Assembly: GCA_964534375.1 (NCBI GenBank)
Contig: CAZHPN010000002.1
Coordinates: 2,276 to 66,275 of the forward strand
Length of the DNA: 64,000 nucleotides
Reading direction: 5' to 3'
DNA from: an uncultured bacterium
GTDB taxonomy: Bacteria; Lernaellota; Lernaellaia; Lernaellales; Lernaellaceae
This document shows, piece by piece, positions 1,253 through 55,907 of this stretch (position 1 is its first letter; the number at the start of each line of letters is the position of its first letter). Both the position numbers and the translations under genes were made by a program. The notes below the pieces were generated by a model. That model saw only the letters and a list, made by a program, of their open reading frames with translations, searched no databases and had not been told where the DNA came from.

Positions 1253-2275
1253 ATGCAACATCCGACGCCGATTCTCCATTCTTTGGGCCTGCTGAAGTGG
1301 GTCTTGGTGGCGCTGCTCACCGTGGTGGTGCTCGGCACGCTGGGCTACATGCTGCTGGAAGATGCGTCGCTCCTTGACGCGCTGTTTATGACCGTCACGA
1401 CGATTACGACGGTCGGGTTTCGCGAAGTGGTCCCGCTGCGTCCGGCCGGCCGCATTTTCACGATGTTGCTGATCTTCGCCGGTTTCGGCGTCCTCATGCT
1501 GGCGTTCGGGGTGCTCACGCAGACGGCGGTGGAAGGCACTTTCCGGCGCCTGGTGGAGAATCGACGCATGCAAAATCAAGTGGACAAACTGAAGAAGCAT
1601 TTCGTGCTGTGCGGTTGCGGCCGCATCGGCCGCCACGTGCTCAACGAGATGCGCGAACTGGGCCAGCCCGTCGTCGTGATCGAGTCGGACGCGGAGGCGG
1701 TCGAGGCGTTGAAGCAGGAAGGCGTGCTTGCCCTGCACGGCAGCGGCGCGGAAGAGGAAATGCTCGTTCGCGCGAACCTGGCCGCCGCCCGCGGGCTGAT
1801 TGTGGCCGTTGGCACAGACGCGGAATCGGTGTTCATCATTCTAACGGCCCGCGATCTCAACCCCGATTTGTTCATCCTGGCGCGGGCCATCGAGGAGAAG
1901 AACGAGGACAAGCTCCGGCGCGCGGGGGCCAACCGGGTGATCGCGCCCTATCGGTTCATCGGCAAACGCATGACCAGCTTCATCCTGCATCCGACGGTCG
2001 TCGACATGCTCGATTCGGTGATGTTCGCCGGCGAACTCGACCTCGGCATGGAGGGCATGCTGGTGCACGCCGCCAGCCCGCTTGCGGGTCGGACGCTGCG
2101 CGACAGCAATATCCGCGAAAAGCACGGCCTGATGATCATCGGCGTGCGCAAAGCGCAGGGGAACATTTTGTTCAATCCGGCGGCCGATGAAGTCATTGAG
2201 CCCGGCGACACGCTCGTTTCGATCGGCGAGAAGGACGCGCTGGGAAAATTGGCCAAGTTGCTCGGGGGAGAGTAG
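1253..2275 (+). CDS. Potassium-channel-like protein with RCK/TrkA-N and TrkA-C gating domains; non-canonical selectivity filter TVGFRE
   Basis: Two TM helices and a pore helix followed by TTVGFREVVP, where MthK has TTVGYGDVVP. Rossmann motif CGCGRIGRHV (GxGxxG) of the RCK/TrkA-N domain, then a TrkA-C-like tail. ATG at 1253 sits behind a T-rich tract. Confidence 0.8.
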   Translation: MQHPTPILHSLGLLKWVLVALLTVVVLGTLGYMLLEDASLLDALFMTVTTITTVGFREVVPLRPAGRIFTMLLIFAGFGVLMLAFGVLTQTAVEGTFRRLVENRRMQNQVDKLKKHFVLCGCGRIGRHVLNEMRELGQPVVVIESDAEAVEALKQEGVLALHGSGAEEEMLVRANLAAARGLIVAVGTDAESVFIILTARDLNPDLFILARAIEEKNEDKLRRAGANRVIAPYRFIGKRMTSFILHPTVVDMLDSVMFAGELDLGMEGMLVHAASPLAGRTLRDSNIREKHGLMIIGVRKAQGNILFNPAADEVIEPGDTLVSIGEKDALGKLAKLLGGE

Positions 2276-2282
2276 CCAGTGG

Positions 2283-2446
2283 CCGTTAGCCGGTAGCCAG
2301 TAGCCGGTAGTCAGTAGTCAGTAGCTGTGGGCCAACCTGCTCGCGCCAATGGAGCTTCTCAAGTTAAGGTTTCGTACAACGCCCGGGAAAGGCGGCCCCG
2401 TGGCTAGTGACTACTGACTACTGACTACTGACTACTAACTACTGTC
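2283..2446. repeat. Intergenic inverted tandem-hexamer repeat element (CAGTAG/CCGGTAG units mirrored by CTACTG units) forming a long imperfect hairpin
   Basis: 2283-2330 reads tagccggtagccagtagccggtagtcagtagtcagtagc. 2404-2446 reads gctagtgactactgactactgactactgactactaactactg, the reverse complement of the same unit. A ~75-nt spacer separates the arms. The element lies between the convergent ends of the channel gene and the nagB-like gene. Confidence 0.6.
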
Positions 2447-2460
2447 GACCAACCACCCGC

Positions 2461-3495
2461 TCACCCGCACCGATAGCAGCCGCTTTCCAAATCCCGATAA
2501 AAACGAATGTCTTCGACCCGGCGCTTGGCCCGGCCGCGCCGGCGATCGACGATCTCGACGCCGCGCGCCGCTAGGTCGCGCCGCCGTTCCAGCAGCGGTT
2601 CGCCGACCACCGCGTCCACCACGTAGACGAGGCAGCCGCCGCGCGCGGCGTAGGTCTGGCCGTAGGAGATGGGCGTGCGCGTCGACGGCTGTTCCATCAG
2701 CGACGCCAGCACCGGCTCGCGTTTGCGGGCGCCGGACGCGAGCAGCAACACGGTGCGCGCCGCGAACACCAGCGACGCGCCCATGCTCACGGCGAACCGC
2801 GGCGAGTCGTTCATCGTCGCGAAATGCCCGTCGGCGACGGCATTGCGGACCGTGTTTTCGTCGAGGCGGACCAGCAGCATTTTGCCGGCCGAGAACGGAA
2901 TTCCGGCTTCGTGAAAGGCGACGTGCCCGCGCCCGCCGACGCCGATGACTTGCAGGTCGATGCCTCCGGCCTTGGCGATCCGCCGCGAATAACCGTCGAG
3001 AATCGCGTGCTTGATCCATGACAAATAGGCCGATTGCGCGGCGGGACGAATCGCGATCGCCCGGCCCGAATCGCGGCCGATCTCACGCCAATCGCCGGGC
3101 CACAACCGTAGATTCCGCTCCAGGTCGATTTGCTCGATCAGTGCGCCGCAGGGCAGGTTGGTTTCGGCGAACGGCCGGCGCAGCAGCCCGAAGAGTTCGG
3201 TAATCATGAAATAGCTGTAACTGGCCGGGTGAATCGTGCGCTGCTGCGGGTTGTCGCCGGGCAGGCCGACGTACTCGTCGAGGTTGAAGGTGCGCACGCG
3301 GGCGGCGTCGAAGCCGTCGCGGTTGGCCGCCGCCGCCAGATGTTTGTAGAGGCCGACGGGGGTGCTGCCGGTGGCGAGGCCCAGCACATATTGGTTCTTG
3401 GCCTGCAGCCGCGCGTGAAAATCGGCGAGCACGAGGGCGCCCGCAATCTCGCTCAGGTGGTCGTAGTCGCGGGCGATAACAATCTGGATGGGCAT
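2461..3495 (-). CDS. nagB: Glucosamine-6-phosphate deaminase/isomerase family protein (NagB-like) with ~80-aa C-terminal extension
   Basis: ATG (cat at 3493-3495). Motifs LGLATGSTP and FNLDEYVGLP are typical of the NagB/6-phosphogluconolactonase superfamily. At 344 aa it is longer than the canonical ~265. Confidence 0.7.
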   Translation of the reverse strand: MPIQIVIARDYDHLSEIAGALVLADFHARLQAKNQYVLGLATGSTPVGLYKHLAAAANRDGFDAARVRTFNLDEYVGLPGDNPQQRTIHPASYSYFMITELFGLLRRPFAETNLPCGALIEQIDLERNLRLWPGDWREIGRDSGRAIAIRPAAQSAYLSWIKHAILDGYSRRIAKAGGIDLQVIGVGGRGHVAFHEAGIPFSAGKMLLVRLDENTVRNAVADGHFATMNDSPRFAVSMGASLVFAARTVLLLASGARKREPVLASLMEQPSTRTPISYGQTYAARGGCLVYVVDAVVGEPLLERRRDLAARGVEIVDRRRGRAKRRVEDIRFYRDLESGCYRCG

Positions 3496-3541: not shown

Positions 3542-4900
3542 TCAGGCGAGGGCGAGTTTTAGTGCATCGGCAATTTGCTGGCAATAGGCCTGCGTCTGCT
3601 CGAGCGTCGGGCCCTCGACCATGACGCGGCACATGTTCTGCGTGCCCGAATATCGGACCAACACGCGGCCCGAATCGCCGAGCGCGGCTTCCACGTCTTT
3701 GATGACCGCGGTGACGGCTGGCAGCTCTTCGAGCGGCTTTTTTCGCCCGACGTCCACGTTGATCAGCGCCTGCGGGAAGACGTCCATCACCTTCGCCAGG
3801 TCGGACAGCGGCCGGCCCGTGCGCTGCATCACCGCGATCAACTGGACGGCCGAGAGCACGCCGTCGCCCGTGCCGTGGTGGTCGAGAAAAATCATGTGGC
3901 CGGATTCTTCGCCGCCGAGATTCGCGCCGAGCTTTTCCATGTCTTCCAGCACATAACGGTCGCCGACCTTCGAGCGGTGGTTTTTGATGCCGATCCGTTG
4001 GCAGGCGATCTTCAGGCCGAAGTTGCTCATCACCGTCGTGACGAGGAGATTGTTTTTCAACGCGCCGTGCGAGAGCAGGTTGAGCGCGCAGATCATCAAG
4101 ATCTGGTCGCCCGTGATCCGCCGGCCGAATTCGTCGACCGCGATCAGCCGGTCGCCGTCGCCGTCGAACGCGAGGCCGAGATCGGCGCCGCCGTGCCGCA
4201 CGATTTCTTCCAATTGCTTGGTGTGCTGGCTGCCGCAATCGTGATTGATGTTCAGGCCGTTGGGCTGGTTGCCGATGACCGTCACGTCGGCCCCGAGTTC
4301 GGTCAGCGTTTCGACCGCCGTTTTGTAGGTGGCGCCGTGGGCCGTGTCGATCGCGATCTTCATGCCTTCCATCGTCAGGTCGCGCGGAAAGGAGTTCTTC
4401 AAGAACTGAATGTACCGCCCCCGCGCGTCCTCGATGCGATAGGCGCGGCCCATATTCATCGCCTGCGGCGTCTGGTCGGGCAGCTTCGGGTCGAGGATCA
4501 GGCGTTCGAGCTCGGCTTCCTGTTCGTCGGTCAACTTGCGGCCGTTGCCGCCGAAGATTTTGATGCCGTTGTCTTCGTACGGATTGTGCGAGGCGGAGAT
4601 GACGATGCCGGCGTCGGCGCGCATGCTCTCGGTGATGAAGGCGATGCCCGGCGTCGGCAGCACGCCCACCAGATACGGGTTCCCGCCCATCGAGGTGATG
4701 CCGGCTTCGAGCGAACTCTCGAACATGTAGCCCGAAATGCGCGTGTCCTTGCCGATGATGACCCGCAGCTTGTGGTGATCGCCCACTTCCTGGCGCAAAA
4801 GGTGCGTCACGGCCTGCCCGACCGCGAACGCAATTTGCGCCGTCATCGGATGGCGATTGGCCTCGCCGCGAATGCCGTCGGTGCCGAACAACTTGCCCAT
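3542..4900 (-). CDS. glmM: Phosphoglucosamine mutase
   Basis: Starts MGKLFGTDGIRG, the canonical GlmM N-terminus. Phosphoserine loop SASHNP. The 18 aa of ORF upstream of this Met lack a start context. The antisense ORFs across this region are Arg-rich GC artefacts. Confidence 0.9.
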   Translation of the reverse strand: MGKLFGTDGIRGEANRHPMTAQIAFAVGQAVTHLLRQEVGDHHKLRVIIGKDTRISGYMFESSLEAGITSMGGNPYLVGVLPTPGIAFITESMRADAGIVISASHNPYEDNGIKIFGGNGRKLTDEQEAELERLILDPKLPDQTPQAMNMGRAYRIEDARGRYIQFLKNSFPRDLTMEGMKIAIDTAHGATYKTAVETLTELGADVTVIGNQPNGLNINHDCGSQHTKQLEEIVRHGGADLGLAFDGDGDRLIAVDEFGRRITGDQILMICALNLLSHGALKNNLLVTTVMSNFGLKIACQRIGIKNHRSKVGDRYVLEDMEKLGANLGGEESGHMIFLDHHGTGDGVLSAVQLIAVMQRTGRPLSDLAKVMDVFPQALINVDVGRKKPLEELPAVTAVIKDVEAALGDSGRVLVRYSGTQNMCRVMVEGPTLEQTQAYCQQIADALKLALA

Positions 4901-11908: not shown

Positions 11909-11969
11909 TGCAGGGGCGGTTCGCGAACCGCCCCTGCGCTGAACGGACCGGCAAAAAGCGGATTTTTGC
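11909..11969. terminator. Bidirectional terminator between convergent genes
   Basis: Perfect 14-bp palindrome gcaggggcggttcg/cgaaccgcccctgc at 11909-11936. A second hairpin, ggcaaaaagcggatttttgcc, carries A/T runs on both sides. Confidence 0.5.
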
Positions 11970-11994: not shown

Positions 11995-13368
11995 CTAATT
12001 GCCGTCGTAATGCAAAATCACCCCACTGTAGCCGACGGCGAATACGTCCGAGGCCGAGCTGCCCCAGACGCCGTACAATGACTGTGCGGACGACGCGGGG
12101 ATCGACATCTGCGACCACGCGGCGCCGTTGTATTGCCAAATCCCCAGGCCGCTGCCTCCCACGCTTCCCACGACGAACACGTCGCTTGCCGAGGCGCCCC
12201 AAACGCCGGCCAGATCCATGGAAGACATCGCGGGGACTGTCATCGCCGACCACGAGGCGCCGTCGTAATGCCAGACCGGCTGGAGATATGCGCCGTCGTA
12301 TCCGACGGCGAACACGTCCGAGGCCGAGCTGCCCCAAACGCCGGTGAATATCACCGTGTCCGTCATTTCCACGGTCATCTCCGACCACGAGGAACCGTCG
12401 TAGTTCCAGAACGATCCGGCGTTTTCAGACGCGGAATAGCCGGCGGCGATCACGTTCGAAGCGGAACTTCCCCAAACGCCATTTAACCCGACGTCCGTCC
12501 CCGGGCCGGGTGTGGCGATCGACCACGAGCTTCCATTGTATTGCAAGGCGACCGGGCCGAATTCGCCGGTCCCGTCCCAGCCGACGCCGATCACGTTCGC
12601 GGCGGAACTTCCCCAAACGGCGCCAAAATACACTTCATCGGTCGTGATGTTCCCCATCGCCGACCACGAGGAACCGTCGTAATGCACGACGGTGACGCTG
12701 TCGGTGCTCGTCTGGTAGCTGCCCACCACGTACACGTCGGAACTGGCGCTTCCCCAAACGCCAACGAACGCTGCGGGGATCCCGGTCGCCGTATAGGACC
12801 ACGAGGAACCGTCGTAATGCCCGATCTCGCCGTTGTCGCCGACCGCGAACACGTCGGAAGGCGAGCTTCCCCAAACGGCGTGCAAATCGTACGGCTGCCC
12901 CCCGGCGGCCGCCACCGACCAATTGTCATCGTCATCGTCGACCGGCGACGTGTCATTGTCGTCGTCATCGTCGACGGTGTCGTTGTCGTCATTGTCGTTG
13001 TCGTCGTCATCGTTGTCGTCGTTGTCGTCATCGTTGTCGTCATCGTTGTCGTCATCGTTGTCGTCATCGTTGTCGTTGTCGTCGTTATCGTCGTCGTCGT
13101 TGTCGTCGTCGTCGGGGGCTGTGTCGTCGTCGACTGGCGGCGACGTGTCGTTGTCATTGTCGTCGTCGTTGTCATTGTCGTCGTCATCGTCCGGCGAAGC
13201 GTCGTTGTCGTCGTCGTCCGGCGAGGCGTCGTCGTCCGGCGAAACGTCGTCGTCGACGGCATGGCCGTGACTGCTGCTGCTGGAGCCGCAGTCGCACGAT
13301 GCCGCGGCAATGACCAGCAAACCCGCCAGAACCATCAGAGCCAGGTGCAAAGCGATTTTCGACCTCAT
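11995..13368 (-). CDS. Exported lipoprotein: lipobox, ~110-aa poly-Asp/Asn low-complexity linker, then 8-bladed beta-propeller-like repeat domain
   Basis: ATG (cat at 13366-13368) behind GGAGGG. Signal ...LVIAAASC. Linker DDDVSPDDDASPDDDDND...(DDDND)n. About eight ~45-aa repeats of the form GVWGSSASDVFAVG...HYDGSSWS. Confidence 0.75.
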   Translation of the reverse strand: MRSKIALHLALMVLAGLLVIAAASCDCGSSSSSHGHAVDDDVSPDDDASPDDDDNDASPDDDDDNDNDDDNDNDTSPPVDDDTAPDDDDNDDDDNDDNDNDDDNDDDNDDDNDDDNDDNDDDDNDNDDNDTVDDDDDNDTSPVDDDDDNWSVAAAGGQPYDLHAVWGSSPSDVFAVGDNGEIGHYDGSSWSYTATGIPAAFVGVWGSASSDVYVVGSYQTSTDSVTVVHYDGSSWSAMGNITTDEVYFGAVWGSSAANVIGVGWDGTGEFGPVALQYNGSSWSIATPGPGTDVGLNGVWGSSASNVIAAGYSASENAGSFWNYDGSSWSEMTVEMTDTVIFTGVWGSSASDVFAVGYDGAYLQPVWHYDGASWSAMTVPAMSSMDLAGVWGASASDVFVVGSVGGSGLGIWQYNGAAWSQMSIPASSAQSLYGVWGSSASDVFAVGYSGVILHYDGN

Positions 13369-14551: not shown

Positions 14552-14559
14552 CAAGGCGG

Positions 14560-14830
14560 AGGGCTAAAAAGCCGGGCATCTTCACCTCTCCCGCTGGGAC
14601 AGGTCGCCGAGTGCAACGAGGCGGGCGAGGGTGAATGCCGATGGGGCCGCCACCCCAGTCCTCTCTCAGGGGGAGAGGGAGCATGAACCTCTCCCTCCGG
14701 GAGAGATCGCCCGCAGGCTGGGTGAGGGCATCTTCACCTCTCCCCCTGGGAGAGGTCGCCGCGCGAAGCGCGGCGGGTGAGGGCGCTCACCCCATCCCTC
14801 TCCCAGAGCGAGAGGGAGGTTGAAAATCGA
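14560..14830. repeat. Cluster of REP-like palindromic repeats (two ~60-bp copies plus GGGAGAGG-type palindromes)
   Basis: The unit gggcatcttcacctctccc[g/c]ctggga[c/g]aggtcgccg...gcggg[c/t]gaggg[tgaa/cgct] occurs at ~14573 and ~14732. Each copy folds as ttcacctctccc / gggagaggtgaa. Between them lie cctctctcagggggagagggag and cctctccctccgggagag. The cluster sits between convergent gene ends. Confidence 0.5.
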
Positions 14831-14891
14831 CGCCGCCCCGGGGGCGGCATCGATTCCAATCACCTGTCGGTTCGGCGGCTTTTCGGTCGGT

Positions 14892-17800
14892 TCACCGGGC
14901 CCGCGGCGCGGCCTGACTGGTCTTTTTCTTGCTTCCGCCGCTACAGGCTTGCTCCTGGCATGTCGCCGGCGGGATGCAGACTTCGCAAACGGCGCCGCCG
15001 GTCCCGCAAGCGCCGGAGTCGGTTCCGAGCTGGCACGTGCCGGTGTTGTCGCAGCAGCCGTTCGGGCACGACGTGGCGTCGCACACGCATTGGAAGCTCA
15101 GGCATTCGGCGCCAGAGGCGGTGCAATTTTGGCAAACCACGCCGCCCGTGCCGCAGTTGGAGTTGTCGCCGCCAGTTTGGCAGTTGACGCCGCTGCAGCA
15201 GCCGGACGGACACGAATTGGCGTCGCAGACGCACGCGCCGCCCGAGCATTCCTGACCGCCGGCGCACGTCGTGCAGGCCGCGCCGCCCGCGCCGCAGTTG
15301 CTGGGGCTGGCGGCCATGCAGACATTGCTCGCGCAGCAGCCGGCGCACGTCCCGTCGCACGCGCACTGCTGGTTCGTGCAACTATCTCCCAAATCGTTGC
15401 AATTCTGGCACGCGCCGCCGGCCTGTCCGCAGAGAGAGGGCGCCGTGCCGGCATAGCACGTGTTCCCGCTGCAACAGCCGTTGATCGTTGCGCACGACGC
15501 TTGCGTGCAGATGCATTGCCCGCCCGAGCACGTCTGGCCGTTGGCGCACGCGATGCAGGCGCCGCCGCCGGAGCCGCACTCGGCATCCGTGACCGGATTC
15601 ACGCAGGTCGACCCGTTGCAACAACCGCTCGCGCAGGCGCTGGTGTCGCAGACGCATTGATTGCCCACGCAATCGTTGCCCGCGCTGCACGTCTGACAGG
15701 CCTGGCCGTTGGTTCCACAGGCGCTGGGGCTGCCGGCAGTCTGGCAATTGCCGGTGTTGTCGCAGCAGCCCGTCGGGCAGGAACCCGACGCCCCCGGCGT
15801 GCAGGTGCACGTGCCGAGCACGCATTCCTGACCGCTGGCGCACGCGCCGCAGATGGCGCCGCTCGCGCCGCAATACGTGGTGTTCTCATTGTCGTAGATA
15901 ATGCACGGCCCAGCCGGCGTCCGGCAACATCCCGTATTGCACGTATTCGAGTTGCAGACGCACCCGCCGGCCACGCACTGGGCGCCGATTGCGGTGCAAT
16001 TCGTGCACGCCGCGCCGGCGGTTCCGCAATCCGCGTCGGCGCCGGAGGTCACGCAATTGCCGCCGTCGCAGCAACCCGAGACCGCCGCGCACGCCGTCGC
16101 GTCGCAGACACAGGCGCCGGACGCGTTGCAGATCTGTCCGGGGGCGCAGGAGAAGCAGGCCGTGCCGCCCGTGCCGCACGAGCCGGCGCTCTCGCCGCTA
16201 TAGACCTCGCACGGTCCGAGCGGCGACACGCAACAGCTTGCGGCGCACGAGGTCGCGTTGCATACGCAGGCGCCACTTTGACATTCTAATCCGCTGTCGC
16301 ACGAGACGCAGGGGGCGCCGTCCGCGCCGCATTGCGAATTGATATTGCCCTGCTCGCACGACGCCCCGGCGCAGCAACCCGAACTGCACGTCGTGTTGTC
16401 GCAGACGCATTCGCCGGCGACGCAATGGTTGCCCGCGCTGCAGACCTGACACTGCGCGCCGCCCGTGCCGCAGGCGCTGTCCGAGGTTCCGTCCTGGTTG
16501 CATTCGGGGGCTGAACCCGGGCAGCAACCGGTGCAGGTAATCGTGTCGCAGGTGCACTCGCCGCTCACGCAATCGACGTCGGTCGCGCACGCCGAACACG
16601 TCGCGCCGCCCAGGCCGCAGGAGCCGGGGCTTTGTTGGTCGAACGTTTCGCACGGCCCGGCGAATCCGGCGACGCAGCAGCCGTTCGCGCACGAAACGCC
16701 GTCGCAAATGCACACGCCGCCGTCGCCGCACCGATATCCGGCGTTGCACGAGATGCACACGGCGCCGCCCACTCCGCAGTCGGAATTCTGGTTGCCCGGC
16801 TCGCAGGTTGTGCCGTCGCAGCACCCGGAGGTGCATGCGGTCGTGTCGCAAACGCATTGCTGCTGCGGGCTGCACTCATTGCCCTCGGGGCAGGCTTGGC
16901 AACTCGCGCCGCCTTTGCCGCAAAAAGTGCTTGTTGTGCCGTCCTGGCAGTTGTTATTGGAGTCGCAGCAGCCTTTTGGGCACGAGGTTGGGTCACAGGT
17001 GCAGACGCCGTTTGCGCATTCTTGATTGGTCAGGCAACCCGCGCAGACCGCGCCGTCGGCGCCGCACGCCGTGACGCTCTGCTGCGCGATCGGCAGGCAA
17101 TTCCCGGCGACGCCGTAGCAGCAGCCCCCGGCGCATGTCGTCGCATCGCAGGCGCAGGTCCGGTTCGTGCAGGGCACGCCGTCGGCGCAGGCGACGCACG
17201 CCGCGCCGCCGCTGCCGCAGGCCGAACTATCCTCGGTGGTCACGCACTGGTTTCCCGAGCAGCAGCCCGTCGGGCAAGCCGTGGAGTCGCACGTGCAGGA
17301 GTTTTTCACGCATTCCTGCCCCGTGGCGCAGGGCGCGCACGCGACGCCGCCTGTGCCGCAGGCCGAATTATCCCCGGCGGTCACGCACTGGTTTCCGGAA
17401 CAGCAGCCGTTCGGGCATGACGTTGCGTCGCACACGCAGACGCCGTTCACGCATTCGGCGCCAAGGGCGGTGCAATCCTGGCAGACCGCGCCGCCGAGCC
17501 CGCAGTCGTTATTGGCTTCGTCCTGGTGGCAGCTGCCGGTGCTGTCGCAACAGCCGTTGTTGGCGCCCACGCAGTGCGCGGCGCAACTTTCGCACTGATA
17601 CGTCGCCGCATTGCAGTATTCTTGCGGCGTCATCGCCGTGCAATTGACGCAGGCTGTTCCGCCGGTCCCGCAGTAGTTGCTGTCGGTCCCCGTCAGGCAT
17701 GTGGCGCCGGAACAGCAACCTGTCGGGCAGTCTGATGGATCGCAGAAGTTCACGCAGGCCCCGTTTTGGCAGACGGTTCCGCTGGCGCAATCCTGGCACG

Positions 17801-18146
17801 GTTGGCCGTCCACGCCGCAAGCCGAGTTGCTGTTTCCCGGTTGGCAGCCTTCGTCGAGGCAGCAACCCGAGCAATATTTCGAGGCATGACAGGGGGGCGG
17901 GGTCGAGTCGTCATCGTCGGCGTTGTCGTCGTCGCCCGCGCTGTCGTTGTCGTTGTCATCGTCGTCGCCCGCGCTGTCGTCGTTGTCGTCGTTGTCGTTG
18001 TCGTCGTCGTCGATCGCGGAATCGTCATTGTCGTCGTCGGCCTGGCGCTGGCCCGTCAAGGATGCGGCGCCGCTGCCGCCGCCGCAGGACGTCGCCAAAA
18101 GCACCAACAAAGTCGCCAAGAGCGTGAATAACAACGCGCGTTTCAT
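14892..18146 (-). CDS. Giant exported lipoprotein: lipobox, poly-Asp linker, ~20 tandem cysteine-rich repeats (Myxococcus-type Cys-rich repeat-like)
   Basis: ATG at 18146 (MKRALLFTLLATLLVLLATSC) behind GAAGGTGG. Linker DDDNDDSAIDDDDNDNDDNDDSAGDDDDNDND. The body repeats C-x-CD-x-T-x-C-x-x-GCC-x-G-x-x-C-x(3-7)-CG-x-GG-x-x-C-x-x-C roughly every 45 aa. Antisense ORFs in this region are artefacts of the repeat DNA. Confidence 0.75.
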   Translation of the reverse strand: MKRALLFTLLATLLVLLATSCGGGSGAASLTGQRQADDDNDDSAIDDDDNDNDDNDDSAGDDDDNDNDSAGDDDNADDDDSTPPPCHASKYCSGCCLDEGCQPGNSNSACGVDGQPCQDCASGTVCQNGACVNFCDPSDCPTGCCSGATCLTGTDSNYCGTGGTACVNCTAMTPQEYCNAATYQCESCAAHCVGANNGCCDSTGSCHQDEANNDCGLGGAVCQDCTALGAECVNGVCVCDATSCPNGCCSGNQCVTAGDNSACGTGGVACAPCATGQECVKNSCTCDSTACPTGCCSGNQCVTTEDSSACGSGGAACVACADGVPCTNRTCACDATTCAGGCCYGVAGNCLPIAQQSVTACGADGAVCAGCLTNQECANGVCTCDPTSCPKGCCDSNNNCQDGTTSTFCGKGGASCQACPEGNECSPQQQCVCDTTACTSGCCDGTTCEPGNQNSDCGVGGAVCISCNAGYRCGDGGVCICDGVSCANGCCVAGFAGPCETFDQQSPGSCGLGGATCSACATDVDCVSGECTCDTITCTGCCPGSAPECNQDGTSDSACGTGGAQCQVCSAGNHCVAGECVCDNTTCSSGCCAGASCEQGNINSQCGADGAPCVSCDSGLECQSGACVCNATSCAASCCVSPLGPCEVYSGESAGSCGTGGTACFSCAPGQICNASGACVCDATACAAVSGCCDGGNCVTSGADADCGTAGAACTNCTAIGAQCVAGGCVCNSNTCNTGCCRTPAGPCIIYDNENTTYCGASGAICGACASGQECVLGTCTCTPGASGSCPTGCCDNTGNCQTAGSPSACGTNGQACQTCSAGNDCVGNQCVCDTSACASGCCNGSTCVNPVTDAECGSGGGACIACANGQTCSGGQCICTQASCATINGCCSGNTCYAGTAPSLCGQAGGACQNCNDLGDSCTNQQCACDGTCAGCCASNVCMAASPSNCGAGGAACTTCAGGQECSGGACVCDANSCPSGCCSGVNCQTGGDNSNCGTGGVVCQNCTASGAECLSFQCVCDATSCPNGCCDNTGTCQLGTDSGACGTGGAVCEVCIPPATCQEQACSGGSKKKTSQAAPRAR

Positions 18147-18603
18147 GTGAACCACCTTCTACCGGATCAACACGGCGTGTCTGACAACTGCAAGACTTGT
18201 GCCTCGTTCGGCGACGCCTTTGGTTCTCTAATCTACCACAATTTCAAATGGTTTCAACAACGGTCTTGCGGGCGATGGCCGAATGACTGTGAAAATTTTT
18301 CACAGAACTGGTAAAACTTTTCACTATTTTCTGCTCCCGTTCGTTCGCCGGTTCCCGTTCCGGTCTCCATGGGAAGACCCCTCTTCTCGCTCCGGAAGAC
18401 AAAATCTCCGCCTCTCTCCTCCCGGCGCAAAGTGCGTTGTTTTCCTGGCCGAACGGGGCGGCCGTGGCATTTTCTCTATTGTCTCGGACCGTCGAATGGA
18501 TCAAAATAAAAACCGGACGAAGGGCGTCTGGCGGGCGGAGCGGCGCCTGGAACGGACGCTCGAAATCAACAACTCGGCGACGAGCGACGATAAGGGCGGC
18601 GAC

Positions 18604-25070: not shown

Positions 25071-27608
25071 ATGCGCCGCGCCACCACGATGATTCTGATC
25101 CTCTTCCTCTGGACGCCGCTGTTTGTCGCGGCGTGCAGCCCCGCACCCGAACACCACCATCACCATCCGGTCGATGACGACGAGTCGCCCATGGACGACG
25201 ACACGTCGCCGAGCGACGACGACACCTCGCCCGCCGACGACGATGCGTCGCCGAGCGACGATGACGCATCGCCCGCCGACGACGATGCGTCGCCGAGCGA
25301 TGACGACCTGTCGCCCGCGGACGATGACGCCTCGCCGACCGACGACGATGCATCGCCCGCGGACGATGACGATGACGCGTCGCCGACGGATGACGATGCG
25401 TCGCCGAGCGATGACGACACCGCGCCTGCCGATGACGACACGGCGCCTGCCGACGACGACACCGCGCCGAGCGATGACGACACCTTGCCGGGCAACGGCG
25501 GCGATGACGACGACGATGACGACACGACGCCCGGCAACGGCGGCGATGACGACGACGACGACGACACGACGCCCGGCAATAGCGGCGATGACGACGACGA
25601 CGACACGACGCCGGGCAACGGCGGCGATGACGACGACGACTCCGCGCCGACCGATGACGACGCCTCGCCTGCCGACGACGATGACAACGACGACATGACG
25701 GTCGACGTGCAATACGTGGCCGGCGGCACCTATTCCGGCGCCGCATTGACGCTGGACGCCGCGGGCAACGCCACGGTCATCTCCGGCAAATCCCGCGATC
25801 TGCTCGCCTACACGGAAAGCGGCGGCAATTTCAGCGAGCAACTGGCGGCGTTCGGCGTTTACGCCAACCCATCGGCGACGCTCGGGCCCGATGGCGCCCA
25901 GCACGTGGCCTTCTACGATTGGATCAACAAGAACCTGCGTTATGCCACCAACGCCGGCGGCGAATGGACGGATGTCCTGGTGGACGGAACGGGCGACGTC
26001 GGCCATTACAGCGGCATCGCGCTGGACGCGGGCGGCGCCGTCCACATCGCGTACACGGTGCAAACCGCCGGCGTGCCCAGCGGCGTGCGCCACGCGACGA
26101 ACGCGAGCGGCGCCTGGCAGACGGACGAGATCGCGGACGGCTCGCAAATCGGCGACTATCCGCAAATCGCGATCGACGCCAACGGCCTGCGGTATGTCAC
26201 GTACAACGACGACGGCAACGTGCAGGTTTGCCTCGCGAATTGGAACGGGGCGGCCTGGAGCAACTTCGCACTGCCGTATTCGACGCCGGACGGTCGGGCG
26301 AGCGCCGTGGCCGTCGGGAGCGATGGAACGCTGAATGTTCTTTACCATCAAGTCAGCGGCGGCATGGTGTACGCCACCGGCACGTACAGCAGCCTCGACT
26401 ACAACCTGATCAACAGCGTCGACAACGTCGCCGATACGCTGGCGATGGCGCTCGACGGCAACGGCGTGGCGCATATTACGTACGCCATCGGCACGAACGA
26501 AGTAGGCTACGGCAACAACTCCGGGGGGACATGGAGCCTGCAAACCATCGGCGCCGGTTACCCCGTGTTCATCGCCGCCAATTCGGTGAATGACGTGGCG
26601 ATCTCGCTCGCGCGGATCGGCGTTGCGCGCAAGCAAGGCGCGACGTGGACAGAGACATACTTCGACTACGGCTTCACGGCCGCGGCGCCGGCCATGCGCA
26701 ACGATGCGCAGGCCCGCCAACATTTCGTTTACCTGGAAAACGAAACCGCGACGCTGCGTCATGCGACGGACGCGACCGGCGGCTGGACCTTCGAGTCGAT
26801 CGCGACCCCGATCGGAACCGGCATGCTTGACAGCGGCCTGGTCGTCGACGCGTCCGGAGGCTTGCACGTCTCATTTTACAACGGCGCGAATCAAAACCTG
26901 AATTACGCGACCAATGCGGGCGGGACGTGGGCGACCAGTGTCATCGACGGCGGTCCGACTGTCGGCCAGGCGAGCGCCATGGCCAGGGACGCCGCCGGCG
27001 TGTTGCACGTGAGTTATTCGGACGACGGAAACGGTGCTCTGAAGTATGCAACCAACGCTGGCGGCGCCTGGCAAACGACGATGGTCGACAGCAGCGGCGC
27101 GATCGGGGCGTCGGCAATCGCCGTCGACGGCGCCGGCACGGCGTACATCGCCTATAGCAATCAGACCGTCGGCGCGATCGAACTGGCGACCGGCGGGATC
27201 GGCGGCTTCTCCGTCCAGACCGTCGATGCCGCCGGCGGCGCCTCGGTGTCGCTCGTGCTCGACGCCAACGGCCAGCCGCAGTTGGCGTACGTCGGCGCCG
27301 GGCTGCGCCACGCTGCGTTGGTCGGTTCGACCTGGCAGGTTGACACGGTCGACCCCGCAGGGACGGCCGCCGGAACCGCGATCGCGACCTGGGGCAACCT
27401 GGGGCTGGCGATCGCCTATCAAAACGGCGCCGCGCTCAGCCTAGCGCTCGGCCGGCCCGGCAATTGGTGGCTGTTGCCGGTCGATACGCTCGACAATGTC
27501 GGCCAACAACCGTCGCTGGTCGCCGCGCCCGACGGCTCCCGCTACGACGTCGGCTATCTCGGCCAGGGCGGCGTCTGGCTGGCGACGGTGACGTTCACGG
27601 CGAACTAG
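25071..27608 (+). CDS. Exported lipoprotein: lipobox, His5 tract, ~200-aa (DDDxSP)n acidic linker, beta-propeller-like repeat domain
   Basis: ATG at 25071 behind GAGGGGAAGG. A TATACT box lies at 25014-25019. Signal ...LFVAACSP. Linker HHHHHPVDDDESPMDDDTSPSDDDTSPADDDASP... (about 25 units), then DDDDDDDTTPGNGG x4. The body repeats ~45 aa of the form YATNAGGxWxTxxVD...G...S[IL]A[LV]D..G..H[IV][AS]Y. Confidence 0.75.
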   Translation: MRRATTMILILFLWTPLFVAACSPAPEHHHHHPVDDDESPMDDDTSPSDDDTSPADDDASPSDDDASPADDDASPSDDDLSPADDDASPTDDDASPADDDDDASPTDDDASPSDDDTAPADDDTAPADDDTAPSDDDTLPGNGGDDDDDDDTTPGNGGDDDDDDDTTPGNSGDDDDDDTTPGNGGDDDDDSAPTDDDASPADDDDNDDMTVDVQYVAGGTYSGAALTLDAAGNATVISGKSRDLLAYTESGGNFSEQLAAFGVYANPSATLGPDGAQHVAFYDWINKNLRYATNAGGEWTDVLVDGTGDVGHYSGIALDAGGAVHIAYTVQTAGVPSGVRHATNASGAWQTDEIADGSQIGDYPQIAIDANGLRYVTYNDDGNVQVCLANWNGAAWSNFALPYSTPDGRASAVAVGSDGTLNVLYHQVSGGMVYATGTYSSLDYNLINSVDNVADTLAMALDGNGVAHITYAIGTNEVGYGNNSGGTWSLQTIGAGYPVFIAANSVNDVAISLARIGVARKQGATWTETYFDYGFTAAAPAMRNDAQARQHFVYLENETATLRHATDATGGWTFESIATPIGTGMLDSGLVVDASGGLHVSFYNGANQNLNYATNAGGTWATSVIDGGPTVGQASAMARDAAGVLHVSYSDDGNGALKYATNAGGAWQTTMVDSSGAIGASAIAVDGAGTAYIAYSNQTVGAIELATGGIGGFSVQTVDAAGGASVSLVLDANGQPQLAYVGAGLRHAALVGSTWQVDTVDPAGTAAGTAIATWGNLGLAIAYQNGAALSLALGRPGNWWLLPVDTLDNVGQQPSLVAAPDGSRYDVGYLGQGGVWLATVTFTAN

Positions 27609-27823
27609 CGACCGCAACAAACGGAGGAAAAAAGAAAACCGTTCGGCCTGAAACGGGCGAGATCGCGATTTCGAGCAGTTCTGATTCCGGGGTTGGCAAC
27701 TCGACCCGGATGCCGATCGCCAGGCCGCCAGGCGCCGCGCTGGGGCGTCATGGCCGTGATCGAGCATCGGGTCGAGCCAACCCCTTTCTCTTTTTCTTTT
27801 CGGCGCGGGCCGGCCGGCGGCGC

Positions 27824-41793: not shown

Positions 41794-41814
41794 ACGCGAA
41801 ATCGCGCAGGCGAT

Positions 41815-41856
41815 GCGGGCCGGCCGGGCGTCACGCTCGGCCGGCCCGTTTGATTT
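41815..41856 (+). terminator. Rho-independent terminator after hppA
   Basis: Stem gggccggccg / cggccggccc (10 bp), followed by gtttgatttt. Confidence 0.6.
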
Positions 41857-41898
41857 TCGGACGATCCTCCAAGGCGATTTTTTTGCCGCGTTTTCCGT

Positions 41899-41926
41899 TT
41901 GACTCGCGTTTCCGCTTGCGTATAAT
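41899..41926 (+). promoter_or_regulatory. Near-consensus sigma70 promoter for the small acidic peptide gene
   Basis: TTGACT at 41899-41904, 16-nt spacer, TATAAT at 41921-41926. Confidence 0.5.
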
Positions 41927-41985
41927 GCAACAACTTGTTCAGGGTGGTTTTCAAGTTTACTGTTTCCGTTGCAAGGAGAAGGTCG

Positions 41986-42228
41986 ATGCGCGCATTGTAT
42001 CTCGTGCTGAGTTTGGCGGTCCTGGCGGCCTTGCTGGCGATTCCCGCGATCGCGGCCGTGAACAACAATCCGGCCGGCGGGTCCGAAGACCATGTGCTGC
42101 AGTCCGACGACGACTCGGCGCCCAGCGACGACGATACGTCGCCCGGCGTCGACGACGACAGCTCCAATCCGCTCCAAGCGCGTACGACGTACGCCGACGG
42201 AAACATCGACGGTTGCGGCTGCTACTAG
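41986..42228 (+). CDS. Small secreted acidic peptide (signal peptide + DDDSAPSDDDTSPGVDDDSS + C-terminal DGCGCY)
   Basis: ATG at 41986 behind AAGGAGAAGG. Signal peptide MRALYLVLSLAVLAALLAIPAIAA. The product is 80 aa. It shares the DDDxSP motif with the large lipoproteins. A dedicated promoter lies upstream and a terminator downstream. Confidence 0.55.
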   Translation: MRALYLVLSLAVLAALLAIPAIAAVNNNPAGGSEDHVLQSDDDSAPSDDDTSPGVDDDSSNPLQARTTYADGNIDGCGCY

Positions 42229-43757: not shown

Positions 43758-43872
43758 CGCGACGAACCGTCTTACGAGAGGACGGCCGGGCGCCCAAAAT
43801 GCCCGGCCGTTCTGTTTGCGCCGGTTGCGGCGGGCCTTGGCGCCGCCGCCGCCGGCGACTTAAAATAAAAAA

Positions 43873-49361: not shown

Positions 49362-49465
49362 TTGTCGTGGGAAGTCTGGGAATTCTGGGAATTCTGGGAG
49401 CCATGGGGTCGCCTGTCGCAGAATTCCCGGATATCCCAGGATTCTCAGATTTCCCAATTGCCTTC
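49362..49465. repeat. Intergenic inverted tandem-repeat hairpin (CTGGGAATT units mirrored by AATCCCAG-like units)
   Basis: tgggaagtctgggaattctgggaattctgggagcc, then gaattcccggatatcccaggattctcagatttcccaattg. The element lies between convergent gene ends. Confidence 0.5.
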
Positions 49466-49469
49466 GCGG

Positions 49470-50633
<1,164 letters not shown>

Positions 50634-55816: not shown

Positions 55817-55907
55817 AGTTACAAGTTACGAGTTACGAATTACGAGTTACGAGTTACACGGCGCCCGCAACTCGTAATTCGTAACTCGTAATTCGCAACT
55901 CGTAACG
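55817..55907. repeat. Divergent-promoter-region inverted array of GTTACGA(G/A) heptamer repeats
   Basis: agttacaagttacgagttacgaattacgagttacgagttac, a 12-nt GC-rich loop, then caactcgtaattcgtaactcgtaattcgcaactcgtaac. It lies between the divergent ATP-grasp (-) and GT2 (+) genes. Confidence 0.6.

Follow-up and report, generated by a model that had tools for sequence, protein, structure and literature searches.

Three mirrored repeat arrays and the genes beside them

Three intergenic elements, here called E1, E2 and E3, lie in the 64-kb stretch of DNA analysed in this work (the window), which comes from an uncultured bacterium and is part of a 124-kb metagenome contig (Joint Genome Institute, JGI, 3300041809). 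In each of them a tandem array of a short unit is followed, across a gap, by an array of its reverse complement; a first-pass annotation had described such tandem-plus-inverted composites at these places, and both Tandem Repeats Finder (TRF) and a search for inverted repeats find them there (Table 1). E1 separates a K+ channel gene (1253-2275, + strand) from a convergent Glucosamine_iso-like gene (2461-3495, - strand); E2 lies between an MFS_2 transporter gene (end 49358) and an acyl-CoA dehydrogenase gene (49470-50633, - strand), which are also convergent; and E3 occupies the divergent gap between a Ddl-like gene (start about 55665, - strand) and a GT2 glycosyltransferase gene (55950, + strand). 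Pfam matches of the flanking genes bear out the gene context first given for the elements.

Table 1. Arms, spacers and putative promoter of the three mirrored arrays, in window coordinates.
Feature	Position	Strand	Basis
E1 left arm, (AGTAGCC)x7.9 heptamer array	2271-2325	+	TRF; inverted repeats I1/I2/I6/I7
E1 spacer, 78 nt, internally structured	2326-2403	.	folding
E1 right arm, (CTACTGA)x5.9	2404-2444	+	TRF, inverted-repeat search
E2 left arm, (TGGGAATTC)x3.6 nonamer array	49368-49403 (TRF array 49368-49399)	+	TRF, inverted-repeat search
E2 right arm, degenerate mirrored nonamers	about 49416-49457	+	inverted-repeat search, folding
Putative sigma-70-like promoter of divergent Ddl-like gene	55763-55736	-	promoter-like sequence between E3 and that gene
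E3 left arm, (AGTTACG)x5.9 heptamer array	55817-55857	+	TRF, inverted-repeat search
E3 GC-rich loop (ACGGCGCCCGC), 11 nt	55858-55868	.	sequence, folding
E3 right arm, (AACTCGT)x5.4, 14-nt super-period	55869-55906	+	TRF, inverted-repeat search

The left arm of E1 begins within the channel gene, whose TAG stop (2273-2275) sits inside its first unit; the description of the elements as non-coding is therefore right for them overall and wrong for this one unit, which supplies the stop codon. The right-arm unit is the reverse complement of the left-arm unit save for one systematic change (AGTAGCC on the left against AGTAGTC on the right), and 16 nt separate the end of this arm from the stop of the Glucosamine_iso-like gene. 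TRF gives heptamers in both arms of E1, not the hexamers (CAGTAG/CCGGTAG) originally read, and finds a 21-nt super-period in the left one. The nonamer of E2 is confirmed as the unit of a true 9-nt array, which begins 9 nt past the MFS_2 stop, and the right arm finishes 12 nt short of the acyl-CoA dehydrogenase stop. E3 is the repeat array that it was taken for, with a heptamer in place of the 8-letter unit GTTACGA(G/A), whose eighth base is the first base of the next unit. Its right arm shows a 92% match at a 14-nt period against 80% at period 7, a super-period that the left arm lacks, and the GT2 ATG lies 44 nt downstream of it.

In each element the mirrored array differs from its partner by at most one unit mismatch, and the gaps between the arms measure 78 (E1), 16 (E2) and 11 nt (E3). 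The three elements provide 10 of the 17 longest close inverted-repeat pairs of the window (I1-I7, I9, I13, I16), and they fold, as had been predicted, into long periodic stems: against 200 shuffles, none of which was as stable, the RNA z-scores are -4.8 (+ strand) and -6.5 (- strand) for E1, -6.9 and -3.9 for E2, and -8.5 and -8.7 for E3, and folding as single-stranded DNA gives z-scores of -4.5 to -7.1. The minimum-free-energy structure of E2 makes up 0.3% of its DNA ensemble. A known structured RNA family was rejected as an explanation: Rfam has no match at its gathering threshold in the whole window, and none over E1 at E <= 1. Two-unit patterns have 8-9 matches for E1 and E3 and 4 for E2, against 0.03-0.13 expected from shuffles, and within the window the matches of each element are confined to its own locus. 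Two further statements of the first description hold as well: the unit sequences, of 29-57% GC in a GC-rich genome (64%), are unrelated to one another, and the elements are not copies of one dispersed element in the ~73 kb of this genome examined, that is, the window and 8.7 kb more of the contig.

Repeats can cause mis-joins in short-read metagenome assemblies, and the data used here are short-read. Chimeric joins or collapsed repeats are nevertheless practically inconceivable as the source of E1-E3, and an assembly artefact was rejected. E1 is 100% identical in the JGI, ENA and Logan assemblies (n = 3) and E2 is base-identical in five assemblies from several samples; this identity across independent assemblies excludes misassembly and hypermutability alike. 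The genes beside the elements are intact, with full-length Pfam matches, and the same mirrored architecture is present in isolate genomes and in many metagenome-assembled genomes (MAGs). The assemblies themselves are clonal, being at least 99.97% identical over 3-12 kb.

Turnover and spread of the arrays

Of the named relatives of the flanking proteins, the nearest belong to Myxococcales MAGs and share 59-64% identity. The comparison of orthologous gaps, which the first-pass annotation had suggested as a check, was carried out in relatives with 64-82% protein identity, and the elements are not conserved there: their sites are empty or hold different arrays. A syntenic Myxococcales MAG (L008) has an 8-nt gap between the channel and Glucosamine_iso-like genes, with E1 absent, and in L004, a 73% relative found in the same sample, the Glucosamine_iso-like ortholog has at its 3' end a (CAGTGAA)x8.4 array without a mirrored partner. 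An 82% relative (L249) retains the divergent gene pair of E3; in the gap between the two genes are a perfect (ATTGCGG)x4.1 array and an inverted repeat, unrelated and 28 nt long, and GTTACGA is wholly missing. At the E2 site, other genes follow the transporter gene in the relatives, after gaps of 27 and 4 nt. Such absence or replacement at orthologous sites implies a local origin and fast turnover. L005/L006, a 69% relative, carries a mirrored pair of its own, (AATGCGG)x4.6 ... (CATTCCG)x3.6, at another place, and a fifth periodic hairpin, in which the 10-mer (AACCAGTCAT)x2 is mirrored around a low-GC spacer of 45 nt (z -9.1), sits on the same contig as the window, ~4 kb upstream of its start (L001 4521-4603 / 4659-4691). 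Next after it comes a direct (CACTGYT)x4.9 array, both lying in a 348-nt gap between co-directional genes. The different units at different places imply that this clade makes such elements repeatedly and loses them quickly.

The architecture reaches far beyond the clade. A scan of metagenome contigs for (CAGTAGT)x3 gave at least 120 stretches, and a scan of one genome per species for (GTTACGA)x3 at least 119; the comparison set used here is 1.64 Mb from the matches listed in both scans, and the counts that follow hold among those matches. They come from Chloroflexota, Bacteroidota, Cyanobacteria, Planctomycetota, Ignavibacteria, Acidobacteriota, Gemmatimonadota, Verrucomicrobiota, Patescibacteria and others. 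A period of 7 leads clearly (661 arrays, against 66 at period 6 and 72 at period 8). The set contains 164 mirrored pairs, a conservative count given that two detectors failed on the degenerate right arm of E2, with a median spacer of 44 nt; 245 of the 756 heptamer arrays belong to such pairs, and the units fall into 248 classes. Where two arrays of the same unit are adjacent they are inverted in 125 cases and direct in 27. When arrays within two mismatches of the searched units are removed, period 7 is still the mode (109 arrays, plus 28 at period 14, against 42 and 52), and without arrays related to those units the inverted pairs outnumber the direct ones by 12 to 1. Single contigs may hold several mirrored pairs of different units: seven in 12 kb of L050 and at least three in each of L146, L053, L149 and L178. 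The layout of E1 is itself a common type, (CAGTAGN)n-spacer-(NCTACTG)n, though the spacers of such arrays are for the most part unrelated. Mirrored pairs lie between convergent genes in 22 cases and between divergent genes in 10. The proposal that the elements are specific to one lineage accordingly fails, as the same architecture, often with identical units, occurs in many phyla and has been published for Xanthomonas (PMC4692102) and for the short tandemly repeated repetitive sequences (STRRs) of cyanobacteria (PMC2670836). An apparent 'AGT/ACT' core or stop-codon enrichment in the units was not relied on, as it is confounded by the way in which the loci were ascertained.

Two groups of contigs show variants of the arrangement. 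In the soil and sediment metagenome contigs L028, L050, L072, L080, L098 and L101 the CAGTAGN-type mirrored arrays are uniform, with ~4.7 units per arm and a gap of 50-58 nt, and the spacers of seven such arrays are related, showing motifs like GCTGACGC and, ahead of the right arm, a run rich in T; from their sequences, the hairpins of these organisms look like a dispersed, possibly mobile family. In a Chloroflexaceae MAG (L149 220-3240) heptamer arrays of AAGTATG/AAGGATG alternate with arrays of the complements CTTCATA/CTTCATC, about twelve in all within 3 kb, as serial mirrored pairs, a higher-order arrangement that is absent from the window.

The two arms of an element have separate histories. 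Those of E1 are homogenised to different variants, and the super-periods of 21 nt (E1) and 14 nt (E3) are each limited to one arm. Over 101 pairs, the order of variant units is mirrored between the arms no better than in unit shuffles (mean z -0.03), and the copy numbers of the arms are barely correlated (rho 0.18). Each arm thus expands, contracts and homogenises alone, as expected for replication slippage, and the permutation test led us to reject a recent wholesale inverted duplication or gene conversion from arm to arm. Among the origins first put forward, slippage plus inversion is the surviving idea, and its slippage component is backed by the one-arm super-period of E3 and the arm-specific variants of E1.

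On balance we consider it more likely than not that E1-E3 are locally generated, slippage-driven short tandem repeat hairpins that belong to a widespread, heptamer-biased intergenic class found at gene 3' ends. In the mechanism that we propose, a 7- or 9-nt unit would be amplified in tandem and a complementary unit would be amplified across a short spacer, the mirrored state arising from a short palindrome already in place or, alternatively, when a template switch copies an array in inverted orientation. Since any register of a periodic stem allows pairing, the hairpin would be expected to outlast the independent expansion and contraction of its arms. In a transcript, the stem of 25-45 bp would act as a generic 3'-end or intercistronic hairpin, much as the hairpins of repetitive extragenic palindromic (REP) sequences do, or it might merely be tolerated; candidate effects are that it pauses or terminates transcription with no need of a T-tract, shields the RNA from 3' exonucleases or offers a target to RNase III. 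By analogy with REP hairpins, a generic role of this kind would be the most likely functional consequence. The mirrored-pair bias, the independence of the arms, the diversity of units and the lack of a G-U signature point to a mutational origin with, at most, a generic hairpin function.

Several results weigh against this interpretation. E3 lies in a divergent promoter region rather than at a gene 3' end. The position at 3' ends has its support in the comparison set, where 57% of the 3'-facing edges are within 10 nt of the stop of an open reading frame (ORF) and 32% overlap one, but both figures are upper estimates because the genes at the comparison loci are crude ORF calls, in which stop-rich arrays end spurious ORFs (in the window, gene positions were verified by Pfam matches). 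No variation in copy number, the mark of a phase-variable contingency repeat, is seen for E1 and E2 among the 3-5 assemblies, all of them clonal and so uninformative on slippage and on such switching. As regards a role in the transcript, the E1 and E2 gaps contain 0 sites resembling a consensus terminator, and over 51 co-directional elements there is neither a T-tract 3' of the hairpins on the sense strand (3.4 vs 3.8 T per 12 nt) nor a sense-strand excess of G-U pairs (35 vs 35).

Rival readings and other structured features of the window

Every convergent gap in the window is strongly structured. Canonical GC-rich hairpins with T-tracts stand at 41794-41934 and 43758-43872, GC palindromes at 11910-11937, and E1 and E2 fill the same niche as the ordinary hairpins and terminators of other 3' gaps. 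One rival reading would make E1-E3 RNA elements under selection, that is, bidirectional terminators without a T-tract, stabilisers of mRNA 3' ends or sites of RNase III processing, with selection on the RNA preserving the complementarity of the arms. Their stems are long and stable, E1 and E2 occupy convergent gaps of the kind in which the window elsewhere has terminator hairpins, and the bias to gene 3' ends extends across phyla; transcript stability or termination has been suggested for STRR hairpins (PMC2670836), and most of the Xanthomonas repeats are transcribed (PMC4692102). In E2, moreover, each of the six non-Watson-Crick pairs is a G-U pair when the + strand is read, and not one is when the - strand is read, with a fold energy of -63.5 against -42.1 kcal/mol, a split that suggests a constraint on the RNA in the transporter mRNA, while chance (a 6:0 split in one element has a one-sided probability of about 1.6%) or strand-biased C-to-T change would also be possible. 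Over the 51 elements this bias is gone: the pairs are divided 35:35 and the elements 14 vs 16 (overdispersion p = 0.07), and RNA-level selection read from G-U asymmetry was rejected as a general explanation. The terminator reading of the first-pass annotation is likewise unsupported, since the hairpins fit it in position and lack both a T-tract and a consensus terminator, and a canonical terminator was rejected on these grounds. Arm lengths are nearly uncorrelated and the order of variants is not mirrored; moreover, the median spacer is long for a terminator loop, and E3 is away from 3' ends. We regard selection on the RNA as unlikely, although it deserves to be taken seriously.

A second proposal was that the units are evenly spaced sites for a repeat-reading protein that binds DNA or RNA, such as a regulator at the E3 promoter or a Csp- or S1-like protein on the transcript. 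E3 does lie between divergent promoters, close to the GT2 start codon and upstream of the sigma-70-like -35 of the Ddl-like gene; in Nostoc, expression of recO and recF is altered by heptamer repeats (bioRxiv 10.1101/2022.06.06.494920), and heptamer units are bound by CspB, as discussed in PMC4679880. Our analysis gave no evidence for such a protein, and the finding that each locus has its own unit, with the many unit classes of the comparison set, disfavours a single sequence-specific reader. With a spacing of 7 bp, neighbouring sites would also face different sides of the helix, a hairpin would sequester them, and the units are not kept at orthologous positions, all of which makes a repeat-reading protein improbable. 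Mobile hairpins of the REP/REPIN type (REPIN: REP doublet forming a hairpin) or of the MITE kind (MITE: miniature transposable element with inverted repeats), with repeat arrays as arms, are if anything slightly more improbable. Gene 3' ends are a location of REPs too, and the CAGTAGN-type arrays of uniform size in some soil contigs, seven of them with similar spacers, suggest a dispersed family there; against this, E1, E2 and E3 share no sequence, their units occur nowhere else in the window or in the extra 8.7 kb of contig, the E1 spacer is similar to 0 of 74 spacers from other mirrored arrays, and no target-site duplication is evident. Dispersed REP or MITE copies were rejected on the missing further copies in the ~73 kb and the E1 spacer without relatives.

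For E2 alone, a reading as a G-quadruplex element like the GGGAATC repeats of Xanthomonas was also considered, in which the mirrored arm would be a partner that competes or regulates. Exactly four GGG tracts lie in the left arm of E2, which fits the canonical pattern G3N6G3N6G3N6G3 (49369-49398), one of 5 starts of such a pattern on both strands of the window, and it has in common with the Xanthomonas repeats the GGGAAT core and the preference for four units (PMC4692102). The complementary arm 16 nt away, however, forms the hairpin of -63.5 kcal/mol, which would beat a three-tetrad quadruplex with 6-nt loops; E1 and E3 have no G-tracts, so this reading covers a single element, and a quadruplex function is not established for the Xanthomonas repeats either (PMC4692102). 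We hold it to be very improbable. A broader speculation is that mirrored 7-nt arrays of arbitrary unit are made or kept at gene 3' ends across phyla by a common, unrecognised process, either a specific template switch of replication or repair in 7-nt steps or the de novo evolution, locus by locus, of a general class of 'slippery', register-tolerant hairpins that lack a T-tract and act as terminators or as structures of mRNA 3' ends. This strikes us as distinctly unlikely; if true, it would make the elements of the window examples of a general principle and not scattered curiosities.

Other repeats of the window lie apart from E1-E3. In the convergent gap 14552-14891 a small palindrome, CCTCTCCC-N3-5-GGGAGAGG, in many cases with TCGCC next after it, is present about five times, and the copies give a very stable joint fold of -194 kcal/mol; exact matches to the palindrome within the window are confined to that gap, and the cluster may be of the REP type, or of the related bacterial interspersed mosaic element (BIME) type. 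The convergent gap 27609-27823 forms a hairpin of ~215 nt with polypurine/polypyrimidine outer arms (GGAGGAAAAAAGAAAA / TTTCTCTTTTTCTTTTC) and an imperfect inverted repeat of ~40 nt as inner arms. Long GAC/GTC-rich (Asp-rich) tandem repeats run within large ORFs (12925-13254, 17907-18039, 25172-25694 and 42105-42156), and a 141-nt tandem repeat (x2.4, 17117-17456) lies within a 1087-aa ORF (14892-18155); these repeats suggest that the ORFs encode acidic, repetitive, probably secreted proteins. A phage-type integrase gene (L260 19760-20962) is found ~1.7 kb past the end of the window, and an IS110-family transposase follows the GT2 ortholog in a 78% relative (L250 1516-2571).

A further array stands beside E1, on the other side of the channel gene. 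It is a perfect (TTTTTCC)x3.4 array (1216-1239) that stops 14 nt before the K+ channel ATG; in a sister organism an identical (TTTTTCC) array precedes a different gene, for an MFS transporter (L251 3514-3538; L252 61-85), and the channel ortholog there has (CTGTCTC)x5.6 in its place (L004 855-893). Such direct, pyrimidine-rich arrays of heptamers, placed just 5' of a start codon, resemble the TAACTGA-type arrays proposed to influence translation.

The elements among known repeat classes

Heptamer-biased intergenic repeats (STRRs) have been noticed since 1990. E1 and E3 have the tandem heptamer arrays of this class, with 7.9/5.9 and 5.9/5.4 copies in their arms, and E2, with 3.6 copies of a non-canonical 9-mer and a degenerate partner, stands at its edge. 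All in all the elements have the features of mirrored heptameric simple sequence repeats or STRRs: tandem arms, a close reverse-complement partner, an intergenic place near a 3' end (E3 excepted) and rapid turnover.

The closest published parallel is in Xanthomonas campestris and X. axonopodis, whose genomes each hold 183-186 GGGAATC heptamer repeats (Rehm et al. 2015, PMC4692102). In 70-75 cases per genome two nearby arrays converge on opposite strands with the potential to form a stem-loop; ~90% of the repeats are intergenic, at a mean of 28 nt past the upstream ORF, and most are transcribed; convergent gene pairs flank them twice as often as divergent ones, and their length and sequence vary between related species (PMC4692102). 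Like E1-E3, then, these pairs are inverted tandem arrays, intergenic, near 3' ends and variable between species. They differ in that one G-rich unit serves the whole genome and the published emphasis is on G-quadruplex formation, whereas E1-E3 have a different and mostly non-G-rich unit at each locus, with a unit length, in this clade, of 7, 9 or 10 nt, and a host that is uncultured and Myxococcales-like by the relatives of its flanking proteins. The narrow GGGAATC class therefore does not take them in: E1 and E3 are without G-tracts, E2 alone fits the pattern, with a 9-nt unit, and no unit is reused in 73 kb.

In filamentous cyanobacteria, PMC2670836 calls heptamer hairpins of the STRR type 'not unusual', for example between hupS and hupL, and names transcript stability, translational coupling and termination as proposed, unproven roles. 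The cyanobacterial STRRs share with E1-E3 the 7-bp tandem units, the several types per genome and the intergenic hairpins, and they differ in that a few unit types recur at many loci, whereas each unit of the window has one locus. In the narrow sense of that class, too, the elements stand outside, with Myxococcales MAGs as relatives and no reuse of a unit in ~73 kb. The direct TAACTGA heptamers of Beggiatoaceae, Cyanobacteria and Bacteroidetes are intergenic and have other heptamer units intermixed (MacGregor 2015, PMC4679880). They show indels in steps of 7 nt between strains, close relatives have shorter, repeat-free gaps, and the arrays are direct and mostly just upstream of start codons, with 1 of 170 sets inverted (PMC4679880). 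Two positions separate the E1 unit CTACTGA from TAACTGA; E1-E3, for their part, are mirrored and lie for the most part at 3' ends, and within the window the (TTTTTCC)x3.4 array is the closer analogue of that type.

REP, BIME and REPIN sequences resemble E1 and E2 as intergenic hairpins that are often found at gene 3' ends and in convergent gaps, and their roles in mRNA stabilisation or termination offer a model for how E1 and E2 may act. They come, however, as tens to hundreds of nearly identical copies that RAYT transposases have spread, and are not internally periodic, whereas E1-E3 have no common sequence and are single-copy in the DNA examined; with units restricted to single loci in ~73 kb, an unrelated E1 spacer and no target-site duplication, they fall outside the REP/REPIN/MITE class. 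Intrinsic terminators share with E1 and E2 the stable hairpin right after a stop codon and differ in the T-tract, which E1-E3 lack; the stems of E1-E3 are 2-4 times as long, with a lower GC content and a periodic sequence, their loops or spacers measure 11-78 nt, and there are 0 terminator sites in the E1/E2 gaps and no T enrichment over the 51 elements. It follows for annotation that such hairpins should not be labelled terminators, small RNAs or mobile elements by default.

In the published work on Xanthomonas, on STRRs and on TAACTGA repeats one thus already finds the architecture, the bias to heptamers, more than one unit in a genome and the rapid turnover. To this the present analysis adds a new host lineage and counts that span phyla. 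The range of heptamer-biased repeats is extended to a GC-rich, uncultured lineage with Myxococcales-like proteins, and the figures go beyond published studies of single units: mirrored arrangements exceed direct ones by ~5:1, the arms evolve independently, units differ by locus and by relative, and the G-U pairs carry no signature of strand.

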